Shown here piece by piece: positions 29,287 to 33,605 of a stretch of DNA of 37,541 nt. The stretch lies in the UHGV virus genome UHGV-0082335, one strand, 5' to 3'. This stretch comes from a virus. The translations under genes and the position numbers were made by a program. The number at the start of each line of letters is the position of its first letter. Position 1 is the stretch's first letter. The notes under the pieces are model-generated. The model saw nothing but the letters and a program-made list of their open reading frames with translations. It searched no databases and had not been told where the DNA came from.

Positions 29287-30113
29287 GCAATCCCCCTGTC
29301 TGCAAACTTCCCTTCCCGTACTCCCGTTAACGAATCTTCCCTCAGCAGGTAATCAAAATCTGCCGTCCAGCCCGTGTCGTTGTCTCCGAAGTAAAACGGC
29401 TTGGCCTGATGCACAAACGCCCTGACATACGCTCTGAAACCGTCCACGTTTGGCGTTTTCAGTTGCGGGATGATTTTCTTCAGGCGGCGTTTGCGTTTCT
29501 CGTTGACCGCAACAGCATGTGGAAGTCTGTCACCGACTTCGGTGTTGTAGGCGTTCAGGAAGGATTCGTAGTCGATTCGTTCTGCCTTGCGACGTTCAGG
29601 TTTAACCTGCCCATCGCCGCCCCCGTTAGGGGGTAAGGGGGTATTTGTATTTATTGTCTTTTGTATATTGTCTTTTGTGTTTGACTGATTCGGTAAATTG
29701 CTTTTTACCGATTTGGTGAAGGTTTGTTTTACCGAATTGGTAAATGTTTTACCGAATCCGTTAACTTTCGTTTTCCACTCGGAAATGTTTGTATTCATAC
29801 CAACTTGACGCCCCACCTGAATGAGAACTCCCATTCTGATAAGCTCGTTTTTGGCGGTAGAGCATTTGGTTGGTGCCATGCCAGTGAGTTCAGCGAACTG
29901 TTCGTTTCCGATCCAATCTATTTTTTTGTTGTAACCGTATGTCTTGCGCCACACAGCCATAACAATCAGTAACTGATGTAGAGTAAGTCCAGAAAGCATG
30001 GCGGCTTCTAACAGTGTGTTTGCAGTCCGAGTGTAGCCATCTTCGAGTTCTGCCACGCGATGCTCCACGACCTCCAGTTGAGGCCTGTAATCAGCTAACT
30101 TAACGACGCCCAT
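29283..30113 (-). CDS. Replication initiator, lambda O / P22 gp18-like (276 aa)
   Basis: Position between cII and the helicase; O-like N-terminal region; iteron array lies inside the coding sequence. Confidence 0.8.
29688..29757. repeat. Putative origin iterons (TTTACCGAAT copies in both orientations) with adjacent AT-rich region
   Basis: ATTCGGTAAA (29688-29697), TTTACCGAT (29704-29712), TTTTACCGAAT (29727-29737 and 29747-29757); flanked at 29641-29680 by GTATTTGTATTTATTGTCTTTTGTATATTGTCTTTTGTG. Confidence 0.6.
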
Positions 30114-30293
30114 GTTTCACTCCTGCTTTGGCTAGTCTGTAAACACCAACAAGGCGCTCTGCGAACGCCCTGTTATTTGCTGCGGCTACCACTAATCCCT
30201 CAGGTGAATCAGGGTGTCGAATCTCTTCTTTTTCCTGGTATTTCTTACGACGTTTTGTCATAATGACTCCTGTGGATTGATCCAGTAATTCCC

Positions 30294-30590
30294 TCAGAAT
30301 TGCATATCAATTTGCTTAGAGTCCCCGGCGGCCACCGGGGATTTTTTCTTTGTGATTTCATCAAGCGCATACTTAAAAGCCCTGCTAATCGGACTGATGT
30401 CTGATGCCATTCCGAAAGCACACAAGACCGAAGCAATAAATCTCCAGTCCGTTCTGCTTATCTTCGATTCATGACAGCCAATCATCTTTGCCAGACCGCG
30501 CTGGGTAAGCGTTGACAGGTTGATGAGTAAATCTGTTTCTGCGCGATCAACGTCGCGCTGTGATAGTTTGCTGTAACTTGTTTGTTCCAT
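30294..30590 (-). CDS. cII: CII-family transcriptional activator (98 aa)
   Basis: HTH region GLAKMIGCHESKISRTDW parallels lambda CII (VGVDKSQISRWKRDW); position between cro and the initiator gene. Confidence 0.7.
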   Translation of the reverse strand: MEQTSYSKLSQRDVDRAETDLLINLSTLTQRGLAKMIGCHESKISRTDWRFIASVLCAFGMASDISPISRAFKYALDEITKKKSPVAAGDSKQIDMQF

Positions 30591-30675
30591 TTCTTAAGAT
30601 TTCCAGTAGTGAATAGTTAGTTGAAAGGTATGCGTGGAAACGCATATGGCCTTAGTTGGTCAGATATCTTGGAAC

Positions 30676-30720
30676 TCGCTTTTCAGCGACGTAGGACGAA
30701 TGTCCGTTGTTACAAAGAGC
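30676..30720 (-). promoter_or_regulatory. nutR: boxA (GCTCTTTGTAACAACGG) and boxB hairpin (UCGCU-GAAA-AGCGA)
   Basis: rrn-like boxA followed by a 5-bp stem/GAAA loop hairpin (30676-30689); the same architecture with a compensatory stem change occurs upstream of N. Confidence 0.55.
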
Positions 30721-30731
30721 GGATCCGCTTA

Positions 30732-30947
30732 TTAAGCGGCTTTGTGTTCCGGCGGGAACACGTCATCAAGACTGACTTTTGCGCCTAACTTGTTTAGGCA
30801 CGCAACAAGAGCACGGCATGTTTTAAGGTCTGGGAAGCGACGACCAGATTCCCAATGTCCGATAGCTCCCTGTGTGCATCCAACTGCCTTAGCAAGTGTT
30901 GTTTGAGAGATATTCAGTGACTCTCGATATTTTCGTAGGTTGCTCAT
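30732..30947 (-). CDS. cro: Cro-like HTH repressor (71 aa; start at internal ATG 30947)
   Basis: MSNLRKYRESLNISQTTLAKAVGCTQGAIGHWESGRR carries an XRE-type HTH; GGAGGG RBS; divergent from cI. Confidence 0.7.
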   Translation of the reverse strand: MSNLRKYRESLNISQTTLAKAVGCTQGAIGHWESGRRFPDLKTCRALVACLNKLGAKVSLDDVFPPEHKAA

Positions 30948-30972
30948 ATGCCCTCCATAGTAACCATAACGC

Positions 30973-31002
30973 AATAATACGATATGTACTTTTAGAATGC
31001 AA
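30973..31002 (-). promoter_or_regulatory. PR promoter (-35 TTGCAT, -10 TATTAT, 17-bp spacer)
   Basis: Minus strand TTGCAT-17 nt-TATTAT about 25 nt upstream of the cro start; overlapped by an operator-like site. Confidence 0.6.
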
Positions 31003-31047
31003 ACAAAAAATACATCTTGTGCATGGATGATTTTAGTACAGAGCGTA
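30978..31047. promoter_or_regulatory. OR operator cluster: three TAC-N5-GTA sites
   Basis: TACGATATGTA (30978-30988), TACATCTTGTG (31011-31021, imperfect), TACAGAGCGTA (31037-31047); the same motif lies in the PL spacer. Confidence 0.45.
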
Positions 31048-31064
31048 ATAATAAGGGTATGAAA

Positions 31065-31718
31065 ATGAAATGGTATGAACTGGCTAGATCCAGAATGAAA
31101 GAGCTCGGCATAACTCAAGAGAAGTTAGCCGAAGAGCTTGGTATGACGCAGGGTGGAATTGGTCACTGGTTGCGCGGATCTCGTCATCCATCTCTTGACG
31201 AGATTGGTGTGGTGTTTAAATACCTTGGTATTGATAACGTCTCATTCAACCACGACGGTACATTTTCACCTGTTGGCGAATACTCATCTGCCCCCGTTAA
31301 AAAACAATATGAGTACCCTGTTTTTTCTCATGTTCAGGCCGGTATGTTCTCGCCTGAGCTTAGAACCTTTACCAAAGGTGATGCGGAGAGATGGGTCAGC
31401 ACAACCAAAAAAGCCAGTGATTGTGCGTTTTGGCTTGAAGTTGAAGGTAATTCCATGACCGCGCCAACAGGATCCAAGCCAAGCTTTCCTGACGGGATGT
31501 TAATTCTCGTTGACCCTGAGCAGGCTGTTGAGCCAGGTGATTTCTGCATAGCCAGACTTGGTGGTGACGAGTTTACCTTCAAGAAACTGATCAGGGATAG
31601 CGGTCAGGTGTTCCTACAACCACTAAACCCGCAATATCCAATGATTCCATGCAATGATAGCTGTTCCGTAGTAGGGAAAGTTATCGCCAGCCAGTGGCCT
31701 GAAGAGACATTTAGTTAA
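31065..31718 (+). CDS. cI: CI-type prophage repressor, HTH plus LexA-like S24 peptidase domain (start ATG 31065; ATG 31059 also possible)
   Basis: N-terminal HTH ([20 protein letters not shown]); C-terminal domain ...[50 protein letters not shown]...[11 protein letters not shown] closely parallels P22 C2 as I recall it. Confidence 0.85.
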
Positions 31719-31749
31719 CAGCCTCACCACTCTAAAACACACAACAATA

Positions 31750-31778
31750 ACCCGACCTTAGCGTCGGGTTTTCTTTTT
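31750..31778 (+). terminator. Intrinsic terminator downstream of cI
   Basis: ACCCGAC-CTTAGC-GTCGGGT stem-loop followed by TTTTCTTTTT. Confidence 0.75.
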
Positions 31779-31844
31779 CCAAAATATAAACCCATTAAAT
31801 ACAAAGCGTTATAAAAAACTAAACCATATTTAGAACATTTTGTA

Positions 31845-31873
31845 TTGACTCAGTAAAGTACACATCGTACTAT
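31845..31873 (+). promoter_or_regulatory. PL promoter (-35 TTGACT, -10 TACTAT) with OL operator in the spacer
   Basis: TTGACT-17 nt-TACTAT; spacer holds GTACACATCGTAC (TAC-N5-GTA motif, 31859-31869); AT-rich upstream region. Confidence 0.65.
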
Positions 31874-31918
31874 TTAGCCATCAGCAGGAAGCTGGAAGCC
31901 AAACGGAACAGACTGGCA

Positions 31919-31966
31919 GGCTCTTTAAACAACGTCGAACACTCGACTACGTGGCTGAAAAGCCAG
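31919..31966 (+). promoter_or_regulatory. nutL: boxA (GGCTCTTTAAACAAC) and boxB hairpin (UGGCU-GAAA-AGCCA)
   Basis: rrn-like boxA at 31919-31933; hairpin at 31953-31966 with the same GAAA loop as nutR and a compensatory stem change. Confidence 0.6.
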
Positions 31967-32063
31967 ATCACCCAACCACATAAGCTGTGGGATGCAATGC
32001 CGAAGCAACCGTCTCAGGAGGGGCTTCGAGATTGCATCGCCAAAGTTTATTCGGGAGGAATCT

Positions 32064-32336
32064 ATGTCCAGAAAAACAGAATTTAAAGGAACCGCAGCTT
32101 CTCGCCGTAGAGCTCGTCGTGCAAATCTGCAAAGTCAGGAGGCGATCAGCTCCGACAAGCTACACAGGCCAACCCCTTCACGAGTGGTCTTGCAATGCAA
32201 GCGCAAACCAGCAATGAGAGCAGAAGTGATAACTCTGACAACGTTGACCAGAAAATATGAAGGTTCAACTTGTCTTCCGAACGTAGCCATTTACGCGGCA
32301 GGCTACCGGAAATCAAAACAACTGACGGCGAGATGA
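32064..32336 (+). CDS. N: N-like antitermination protein (90 aa; start at internal ATG 32064)
   Basis: Arginine-rich motif near the N-terminus (TAASRRRARRANLQ) as in lambda/P22 N proteins; GGGAGG RBS; first gene after PL/nutL. Confidence 0.7.
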   Translation: MSRKTEFKGTAASRRRARRANLQSQEAISSDKLHRPTPSRVVLQCKRKPAMRAEVITLTTLTRKYEGSTCLPNVAIYAAGYRKSKQLTAR

Positions 32337-32394
32337 CTTGTGTTGGTCGCCAGAAAATGAAATTAGGCAGCAAACCACTTATTTGAGGTGAGAT

Positions 32395-32865
32395 ATGACA
32401 AAATCATGGAGCGTACCTTTTCCTGAATCAGAAACTGAACATGATGGAATGCCTGTTTTCTGGAGATTCCAGGCGACAGTTGAAGAAGATGGAATCAAAA
32501 TATTAGCACTTCAATATATAGCTTTTCATCAGACAGAGCATTATGCATGGTTGGTTCCTGCGCATTGGATTGTTAATTTTAAACCAGCACCAAATCAGTG
32601 GTTACAGGAATGGAAACAAAGGAGAAATAGATATGCAATTAAGAAAGTAGCAAAAAATGCAGAAAGATCTTTTGCATTCCCAACGAAGAAACTTGCCATT
32701 GAGAGTTTATTGCGCCGGAAGAAATACCATTTAATGAGAATCAAACAAGATTTGGCTGTTGTATCAACTCTTGTTGATGGGATGAAGAATATTGATACAT
32801 CAACACCAGATATTGAATATAACTTTGGACACAACCAAGAAACAGAAAATTGGGTATTCTACTAG
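32395..32865 (+). CDS. Hypothetical protein (156 aa), AT-rich moron-like gene
   Basis: RBS GAGGTGAG; markedly AT-rich; followed by its own strong terminator; no recognisable motif. Confidence 0.6.
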   Translation: MTKSWSVPFPESETEHDGMPVFWRFQATVEEDGIKILALQYIAFHQTEHYAWLVPAHWIVNFKPAPNQWLQEWKQRRNRYAIKKVAKNAERSFAFPTKKLAIESLLRRKKYHLMRIKQDLAVVSTLVDGMKNIDTSTPDIEYNFGHNQETENWVFY

Positions 32866-32890
32866 GCCGCATAGTCGGCCTTTATTTTTG
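32864..32890 (+). terminator. Strong intrinsic terminator after the 156-aa ORF
   Basis: AGGCCG-CATAGT-CGGCCT followed by TTTATTTTT. Confidence 0.8.
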
Positions 32891-33047
32891 GCATAAACAA
32901 CAGAATAAACACTGCACTGTGTATTCATTCCAACGAGTGAATACACGGAGCAATGTCGCTCGTAACTAAACAGGAGCCGACTTGTTCTGATTATTGGAAA
33001 TCTTCTTTGCCCTCCAGTGTGAGGGCAATTTTTTTGACGGAGGATAT

Positions 33048-33359
33048 ATGAAATTACGTGTCTGGCATATCCCGCAAGTACCTATGAAGCCGTTCATTGT
33101 AGAAGTGGCAAGTGTTGAAGAGGGTGTTCGCCTGATGGACGCACTGGCTGATTATGACGCCTTTCAGTATGACAACAACATCAAGCCTGATTACTGCAAT
33201 GCTAACGGCCTTGAGATGTGGGATGAGAGCCTTACCGATGAAGATTTATCAGAGATGGGGCTTACTGATCGCTGGGTGGATTGGTACAGCGAATGCCAAT
33301 GTTACGACGACCCACGTAAATATCTCGAAAGCCTGAAAGAAGAAACATCAGCCGCCTAA
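33048..33359 (+). CDS. Hypothetical acidic protein (about 104 aa; start at internal ATG 33048)
   Basis: ORF in the early-left operon (MKLRVWHIPQVPMKPFIVEV...); contains a CQCYDDP motif; function unknown. Confidence 0.5.
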   Translation: MKLRVWHIPQVPMKPFIVEVASVEEGVRLMDALADYDAFQYDNNIKPDYCNANGLEMWDESLTDEDLSEMGLTDRWVDWYSECQCYDDPRKYLESLKEETSAA

Positions 33360-33434
33360 GTGCGGCTTTACCGCATACCAATAACGCTTCACTCGAGGCG
33401 TTTTCGTTATGCAATCAAACAGAAGGAGCATCCT

Positions 33435-33605
33435 ATGCAACAGTTCGCTATTGCAGGGGCGGCATCGGTTCGCCCTTTCAACCCGATTTTATCGGTGCAG
33501 CATTCACGAAAAAATATTTTAACCGGAGCAGACTTTAAACAACCTCGCGTTAAGAGCTTGCTGGATCGTCTTGTTGAGTTTCTGAATCAAAAGGTACAGC
33601 CATGA
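33435..33605 (+). CDS. cIII: CIII-like small protein (56 aa; start at internal ATG 33435)
   Basis: MQQFAIAG... start and ..SLLDRLVEFLNQ.. segment resemble lambda CIII (MQYAIAGW..., SLLERITRKL...); AGGAG RBS 7 nt upstream. Confidence 0.45.
   Translation: MQQFAIAGAASVRPFNPILSVQHSRKNILTGADFKQPRVKSLLDRLVEFLNQKVQP

Follow-up and report, generated by a model that had tools for sequence, protein, structure and literature searches.

Probable nutL and nutR sites with a GAAA tetraloop boxB in the lambdoid virus genome UHGV-0082335

The virus genome stretch UHGV-0082335, which was analyzed over its whole length of 37,541 nt (the window, on which all coordinates are given), contains the immunity region of a lambdoid phage in inverted orientation relative to the lambda map. 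A first-pass annotation of this region proposed two N utilization sites, nutL and nutR, each with a GAAA loop in its boxB hairpin. Are these the sites of an N antitermination system, and what kind of N protein would read such a loop? The two sites are very probably the nutL and nutR of a lambdoid N antitermination system with the architecture of phage H-19B, in which the GAAA boxB represents a specificity variant. The support for the nut reading comes mainly from comparison, not from the single compensatory base pair on which the annotation had relied.

Anatomy of the two sites and pairing of their hairpins

The nutL site on the + strand starts with a boxA (GCTCTTTAAACAAC / GCUCUUUAAACAAC, 31920-31933), in which a core of the rrn/consensus type, GCUCUUUA, is followed by ACAAC. 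Downstream are a spacer hairpin, GUCGA-ACAC-UCGAC (31934-31947), a UACG linker (31948-31951) and the boxB hairpin UGGCU-GAAA-AGCCA (31952-31965), a 5-bp stem capped by a tetraloop. The nutR site on the − strand has the same order of elements: boxA GCTCTTTGTAACAAC (30720-30706; as a feature, 30706..30721, in the form CGCUCUUUGUAACAAC), the spacer hairpin GGAC-AUUC-GUCC (30705-30694), which is identical to that of H-19B nutR, the UACG linker (30693-30690) and boxB UCGCU-GAAA-AGCGA (30689-30676), again with a 5-bp stem and a tetraloop. Both boxB hairpins and the nutL spacer hairpin were read from the sequence. At both sites boxA lies 5′ of boxB and conforms to (C/U)GCUCUU(U)A, as GGCUCUUUA in nutL and CGCUCUUUG in nutR. 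A dyad spacer hairpin that separates boxA from boxB and is followed by UACG is the arrangement of the H-19B type, and the UACG linker is invariant in 37 of 37 distinct aligned sites.

The elements named by the first-pass annotation are all found where it had placed them. Its description of boxA as rrn-like is borne out by the core of the nutL boxA and by the canonical GCUCUUU at both sites, and the second stem pair of boxB is indeed G:C in nutL and C:G in nutR. The TACGT that it listed as an element holds as a TACG linker; the final T is the first base of the boxB stem and had been counted twice. Comparison with the reference genomes of lambda (GAAGA/GAAAA) and P22 (GACAA) confirmed that the boxB differs from both, the loop being a true GNRA tetraloop. 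Two features had escaped the annotation: the H-19B architecture and a predicted competing fold between boxA and boxB.

The expectation by chance was estimated with 100 dinucleotide-preserving shuffles, searched with the composite pattern GCTCTTT-N(2-6)-AAC-N(8-30)-TACGT-NN-CTGAAAAG, which matches twice in 37.5 kb, at nutL and nutR, and never in the shuffles. Bare hairpins with a U-GNRA-A loop and at least 5 bp are not enriched (4 found, 3.35 expected), and GCTGAAAAGC with one mismatch allowed occurs at chance level. The significance is carried by the composite architecture and by the placement of the sites. The latter is that of lambdoid nut sites, with one site between pL and N and the other between cro and cII in the pR transcript. 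A scan of 29500-33500 against Rfam (E≤5) gave four matches, all with E>3 and far under the gathering scores, and no nut model among them. The reading of the two segments as N utilization sites fits their placement, their gene context and their homology to H-19B.

The annotation had presented the G:C to C:G change as direct support for function. A single compensatory pair is weak evidence when taken alone, but pairing is kept across a wider comparison, for which pairs were counted on a structure-anchored alignment (A4) of nine distinct arm/loop combinations. A whole-site MAFFT alignment (A2), in which the loop indel and the arms of the spacer were wrongly placed, was left out of the counts. The outer pair of boxB is U-A, C-G, A-U or G-C, the second either G-C or C-G, and the three inner pairs are fixed except for one U.G. 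No tetraloop site departs from the U-A pair that closes the loop, which lambda, P22 and H-19B have as well. All 81 cells pair in A4, a value that is reached partly by construction because the alignment was anchored on the hairpins, and five of the nine pairs change on both sides; when the partner columns were slid as controls, pairing was 22-47% and at most one pair changed on both sides. The position of the spacer hairpin holds three unrelated stems, relatives having GAUUC/GAAUC or GGAC/GUCC, and three of its four counted pairs change on both sides. On the structure-anchored alignment, boxB pairing is supported by compensatory changes, the informative part of which is the variety of pair types.

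The N protein, its boxB type and the surrounding locus

The N gene is located downstream of nutL (32064..32336, + strand) and encodes a protein of 90 aa that belongs to the Pfam family N_peptide (PF25694, E 8e-32). Its arginine-rich motif (ARM), AASRRRARRANLQSQE, comprises residues 11-26 (about 32094-32141), and its C-terminus, CLPNVAIYAAGYRKSKQLTAR, is of the P22/H-19B type. We collected N loci from named phages, IMG/VR and GTDB genomes, the last of which contributed 17 loci of limited statistical use, and parsed from each the N-terminus of N, the hairpin that follows UACG upstream of N and the hairpin that follows GUCCUACG on the opposite strand. The ARM type matches the boxB loop type in 189 of 189 N loci, with no exceptions, and the N encoded beside the nutL of the window agrees with its boxB in the same way. 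Counted as sequences and not as independent events, N proteins with the ARM RRR[AED][RH]RAx[LFVM]Q (46 distinct N) go with GAAA at 131 nutL and 124 nutR sites and with GCAA at 8 nutL sites, and those with the ARM RRRERLKA (11 distinct N) go with GACAA at 27 nutL and 33 nutR sites and with CGUCAAC at 8 nutL sites. GCAA, the sole variant of the tetraloop, still fits GNRA.

Exchanges between otherwise similar loci are seen in several settings. In Salmonella, the SI8-type N (120 aa, tetraloop) and the Oslo/SPN9CC-type N (127 aa, pentaloop) share 80% identity overall, with the differences concentrated in the ARM; their nutL flanks (GGTGAAAAT in SI8 and GGTGAACAT in Oslo) differ by one base through the spacer hairpin and UACG, while boxB is replaced. 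The Oslo version of this flank is also found at other tetraloop loci. An identical nutR flank, GUAAGCAACACCACUUCCAACAACGGACAUUCGUCCUACG, precedes GAAA in eight loci and GACAA in seven, each with the matching ARM. Finally, the cro-cI-pL DNA of 683R2, Dewey and Louie is 97.6-98.5% identical to that of the window, and that of 720R6 98.5%; in all four the homology breaks off with the cro stop codon on one side and shortly ahead of nutL on the other. The vB_EcoP-683R2 locus, the one among 683R2, Dewey and Louie in which the N and boxB types were read, has a lambda-type N and lambda-type boxB at nutL and nutR. These swaps in near-identical backgrounds show independent events of exchange, in which N, nutL and nutR move together while the immunity region that they flank stays the same.

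Further loci are of separate interest. Oslo and SPN9CC carry one N (ARM RRRERLKAKA) and two unlike boxBs, GCUC-CGUCAAC-GAGC in nutL and UCGCU-GACAA-GGCGA, closed by U.G, in nutR. A prophage of Rosenbergiella gaditana (NZ_JABBFR010000023.1) encodes an N-like protein whose ARM, TRRDEKRKAKQMAF, is collinear with that of lambda and has Phe at the position of Trp18; a candidate boxB, GCGCU-GAAA-AGUGC, is located ~241 nt upstream of the N-like open reading frame (ORF), and this prophage is possibly an independent tetraloop boxB lineage.

The paradigm for how such a set operates is lambda, in which NusB-S10 binds boxA and NusA the spacer and boxB, while N contacts boxB with its ARM and RNA polymerase with its C-terminus (PMC8632103, PMC3177189, PMC2724277). 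With the anatomy, homology and ARM/boxB co-variation observed here, a similar course can be proposed for the window. On the emerging pL and pR transcripts, boxA (GCUCUUUA/G) would be bound by NusB-S10 and the spacer would engage NusA, as in the lambda and H-19B paradigms. N, which the pL transcript encodes just downstream of nutL, would bind the U-A-closed GAAA boxB at both sites through its ARM, as the co-variation suggests. By the same paradigms, its P22/H-19B-type C-terminus would modify RNA polymerase, which could then read through a Rho-dependent tR1 and the leftward terminators, e.g., the hairpin at 32864-32881.

The layout of the locus accommodates these two transcripts. The − strand carries the replication genes, cII (30590-30294) and cro (30732..30950; 72 aa, HTH_3), the stop codon of which is 10 nt upstream of the nutR boxA; the + strand carries cI (31065-31718) and N. 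Consensus scans found a pL-like promoter, TTGACT-17-TACTAT (31845..31873, +), upstream of the nutL-N transcript, 3′ of the cI terminator hairpin (31749-31770) and 5′ of nutL, as well as a pR-like promoter, TTTGCA-18-TATTAT (31003-30974, −), heading the cro-nutR-cII transcript. The pL 5′ leader, CATCAGCAGGA, is common to the pL leaders of lambda, P22 and HK620 in the reference genomes. Between nutR and cII, the interval 30591..30675 (−) is tR1-like by alignment with H-19B nutR/tR1 and would be the first terminator that N has to override. The terminator-like hairpin at 32864-32881 is among the leftward terminators beyond N.

The N coding region has several features of its own. An in-frame upstream ATG (31992-32336) would give an N of 114 aa, and the coding sequence has ~345 bases in AP005154, FM180578 and AJ413274; the 90-aa product is supported by the starts of homologues (MSRKT/MTRRT) and by the GGGAGG directly 5′ of the ATG at 32064. 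The leader from nutL to N (31966-32060, +) is predicted to form a long imperfect hairpin (−42.3 kcal/mol, z −4.3; none of 200 shuffles was as stable), at the base of which CCCAACC, just 3′ of boxB, pairs with the N Shine-Dalgarno sequence GGGAGG. A similar hairpin, for RNase III / translational control, is present in the N leader of lambda. Overlapping the N stop codon, the short ORF MTCVGRQKMKLGSKPLI* (32333-32386, +) is the same as the final 17 codons of N in 683R2, which is lambda-type (...GVTCVGRQKMKLGSKPLI), and is a fossil at the recombination joint left by the exchange of the N module. A PDB sequence search with N gave no match even at E≤10; N proteins are described as intrinsically unstructured (PMC8632103).

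The N module is widespread. N is 98.9% identical to the N of the Stx1 converting phage, Stx2 II, 2851, YYZ-2008 and the PA phage series, and among 5426 complete E. coli genomes, 759 (~14%) contain the nutL and N module at ≥80% coverage, Stx phages included. In the closest 80 IMG/VR loci, both boxBs are the same as those of the window in all 80. Some E. coli genomes carry up to four copies of the module, and E. coli strain SD134209 (NZ_CP029692.1, 2575258-2575679) matches the nutL-N stretch at 100% and is a candidate for the source of the window or for a very near relative. Two short contigs of a 'Segatella copri' metagenome-assembled genome (MAG; JAJXBQ01) also carry an E. coli-phage N, one of them 99% identical to that of the window, and were most likely mis-binned into this Bacteroidota MAG.

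Competing folds and other explanations

The first-pass annotation had suggested RNA folding as a check. When 58-nt segments were folded, the boxB hairpin was not returned for either site: the minimum free energy (MFE) structure of both contains a helix between (G/C)GCUCUUU of boxA and AAAAGC(C/G) of the boxB loop and 3′ arm (−14.9 and −16.3 kcal/mol, compared with −12.8 and −12.9 kcal/mol when boxB was enforced), and the probability of boxB, P(boxB), is 0.02-0.03. With 20 nt of additional 5′ context, the window-type nutR forms boxB with P 0.92, because the CCGC overlapping the start of boxA is then paired with a GCGG that follows the cro stop. Common nutL variants stay mainly in the alternative fold (P(boxB) 0.04-0.18). 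In this part of the locus the cro stop codons (30721-30745, −) lie just upstream of the nutR boxA within a hairpin, CCGC-UUAAUAA-GCGG, whose GCGG can alternatively pair with the CCGC overlapping the boxA start (GCGGAUCCGC).

These folds are one of several points that weigh against reading the sites as a working nut pair. The thermodynamics of naked RNA disfavor boxB in nutL (P(boxB) 0.02-0.18, with the boxA:boxB-3′-arm helix as MFE), and in free nutL RNA this alternative helix may therefore be a competitor; boxB would be expected to gain from hairpin folding during transcription and from bound proteins. The complete pairing in A4 is to be discounted for its anchoring. N binding, the use of Nus factors and read-through at these sites are what we infer from the paradigms and the co-variation. 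In lambda, moreover, the extruded loop base was reported to matter for the assembly of the NusA-dependent complex, and it can therefore not be taken for granted that a tetraloop boxB functions just as that of lambda does.

Could the alternative helix itself be functional, as a switch that hides boxB or boxA as long as NusB-S10 or N has not bound, and that thereby orders assembly? Besides being the MFE structure of both 58-nt segments, the helix includes the base 5′ of boxA, G in nutL and C in nutR, which matches the covarying base in the boxB 3′ arm, and the title of a paper by Neely & Friedman (2000) on H-19B contains the words 'alternative NUT RNA structures'. The helix, however, is not conserved: the nutL of 75/02 has A 5′ of boxA, with the two-hairpin fold as its MFE structure, and the nutL of SI8 and that of H-19B are devoid of a canonical boxA. 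In HK620 an unrelated boxB stands behind the same GGCAGGCUCUUUAA leader module and its G, so this G was not selected to match boxB, and the C 5′ of the nutR boxA is plain boxA consensus. The window-type nutR leaves the helix once its 5′ context is extended, and a local hairpin should form first during transcription. We regard such a switch as improbable. The three-way covariation of the base 5′ of boxA with boxB was likewise judged probably coincidental, given 75/02, HK620, the nutR consensus and the longer-context fold.

A second alternative would assign recognition to another part of the site: the target of N might be the spacer hairpin together with UACG, or else a 4-bp stem capped by a UGAAAA hexaloop, with the GAAA hairpin as a mere structural neighbor. 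The spacer hairpin and UACG do equal boxB in positional conservation, and the H-19B spacer is protected in N/NusA-modified complexes (PMC3526286). Yet the spacer hairpin and UACG are unchanged across ARM types, and it is the boxB loop alone, in nutL also the stem, that switches with them; the conserved U-A closing pair speaks against a hexaloop. This alternative thus seems very unlikely to us. Least credible of all is that the sites are inactive relics or chance hairpins of an element with a non-functional N: although the N module bears a recombination scar with the fossil lambda-type N 3′ end (32333-32386), the number of composite motifs expected by chance is zero, hundreds of genomes and the complete-genome phages 2851, Stx2 II and 2B8 retain both sites and N, and the stem changes are compensatory while the loop changes stay within GNRA. 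The assignment of the two sites to nutL and nutR, with boxB as the element that N discriminates, remains our preferred reading.

Significance and comparison with known systems

As an N/nut system the locus is ordinary and common, and its sequences have been public for >20 years. A natural tetraloop boxB with a matched ARM class is probably an undescribed variant of this known system. A literature search that included the literal boxB sequences returned no GAAA-tetraloop boxB and no nut sites of the Stx1-Sakai/2851 type, the older VT1-Sakai, Nil2 and Stx2 II literature being outside its reach, and nut sites are not annotated in the public records AP005154, AJ413274 and FM180578 that we inspected. 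For annotation the value is routine: nutL and nutR are located in a prophage module that is very common and for which the inspected records list none. A wider proposal, which we put forward tentatively and with somewhat less than even confidence, is that a widespread N class (about one in seven complete E. coli genomes, Stx phages) recognizes a GNRA tetraloop boxB without an extruded base or Trp stacking; the extruded base would then be dispensable for a working N-Nus complex, and a loop indel plus an ARM swap would suffice for a specificity orthogonal to that of H-19B/933W. N-boxB serves in textbooks as a model for how peptides recognize RNA, and as a tethering tool it is in wide use. If the proposal is true, a natural and common N/boxB pair with a plain GNRA tetraloop would represent this interaction in its minimal version, with the H-19B boxB, the same but for one extra loop base, as a ready comparison. 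Such a pair would let the contribution of the extruded base to N specificity and NusA recruitment be tested directly, as well as the orthogonality to existing tethering pairs and the cross-talk of N between phages and prophages with different N types.

The rrn antiterminators share with the window the GCUCUUUA core of the nutL boxA, in place of the GCUCUUA of lambda (rrn boxA UGCUCUUUA, lambda boxA CGCUCUUA; PMC2724277). In rrn leaders boxB lies 5′ of boxA and is dispensable, and there is no N protein (PMC8632103). HK620 and mEpX2, whose nut sites are annotated (NC_002730), have the same pL leader module through GGCAGGCUCUUUAA, a lambda-like ARM, NRRRARRQAQREQ, and GAAA inside the loop; their boxB, CCCGC-CGAAAU-GCGGG, a further candidate beside that of Rosenbergiella, is in contrast a hexaloop or a C.U-closed tetraloop, and they have neither spacer hairpin nor UACG.

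The structurally characterized boxBs, namely the lambda and P22 pentaloops and the phi21 hexaloop, imitate the GNRA fold while extruding a base (PMC12550061, PMC12027372). The lambda sites resemble those of the window in the boxA-boxB order, the 5-bp stem, the U-A closing pair and the GNRA fold taken up by a G-purine-rich loop, and the lambda ARM AQTRRRERRAEKQAQW (N 3-18) is collinear with AASRRRARRANLQSQE, 9 of 16 residues being identical by inspection. Lambda differs in its pentaloops, GAAGA/GAAAA, which form the GNRA fold by extruding one nucleotide (PMC12027372), whereas the window has the four bases GAAA; in Trp18, to which Glu26 of the window N is aligned; in having no spacer hairpin; and in the body and C-terminus of N (...GRQKIKGKSIPLI), which are unrelated. 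Recognition of the lambda type, by a GNRNA pentaloop with an extruded base and stacking of Trp18, is accordingly not what the four-base loop and Glu26 indicate. P22 gp24 shares the C-terminal motif and the Pfam family of N, a boxB stem closed by U-A (GCGCU/AGCGC) and the boxA CGCUCUUUA. Its loop, however, is GACAA, the third base (C) of which is looped out and contacts the peptide (PMC12550061), its ARM is TRRHERRRKLAIER, and spacer hairpin and UACG are missing; the window has no loop C and an ARM that differs from TRRHERRRK.

The N-nut system of H-19B, 933W and HK97, reportedly due to Neely & Friedman (1998, 2000), comes closest, with a boxA-like ...ACAAC, a spacer hairpin, UACG and a 5-bp boxB closed by U-A. 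H-19B nutR/tR1, in which 'two hairpins' have been described, has been used by the Sen laboratory in assays of N-dependent antitermination and Rho-termination (PMC3526286). With H-19B the window shares the nutR spacer hairpin (GGACAUUCGUCC), the boxB stem, the N C-terminus CLPNVA(L/I)YAAGYRKSKQLTAR and the Pfam family, and nutR/tR1 is collinear at 93% mean column identity over 148 columns, with four substitutions 3′ of boxB. H-19B N has 127 aa, compared with 90 aa in the window, at 40% identity, and the H-19B nutL is without a canonical boxA (nutR has CGCUAUUUU), whereas the window has GCUCUUU at both sites. The systems part in the pairing of loop and ARM: the GACAA pentaloop of H-19B goes with the ARM RRRERLKAKALA (RRRERLKAKA), and the GAAA tetraloop of the window with RRRARRANLQSQ (RRRARRANLQ). 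In nutR, the single boxB difference in the alignment is CGCUGA-AAAGCG in the window against CGCUGACAAAGCG in H-19B, i.e., UCGCU-GAAA-AGCGA against UCGCU-GACAA-AGCGA with one loop C fewer. Relative to H-19B, its closest characterized relative, the boxB of the window thus lacks just the loop base that is extruded in complexes of the P22 type.

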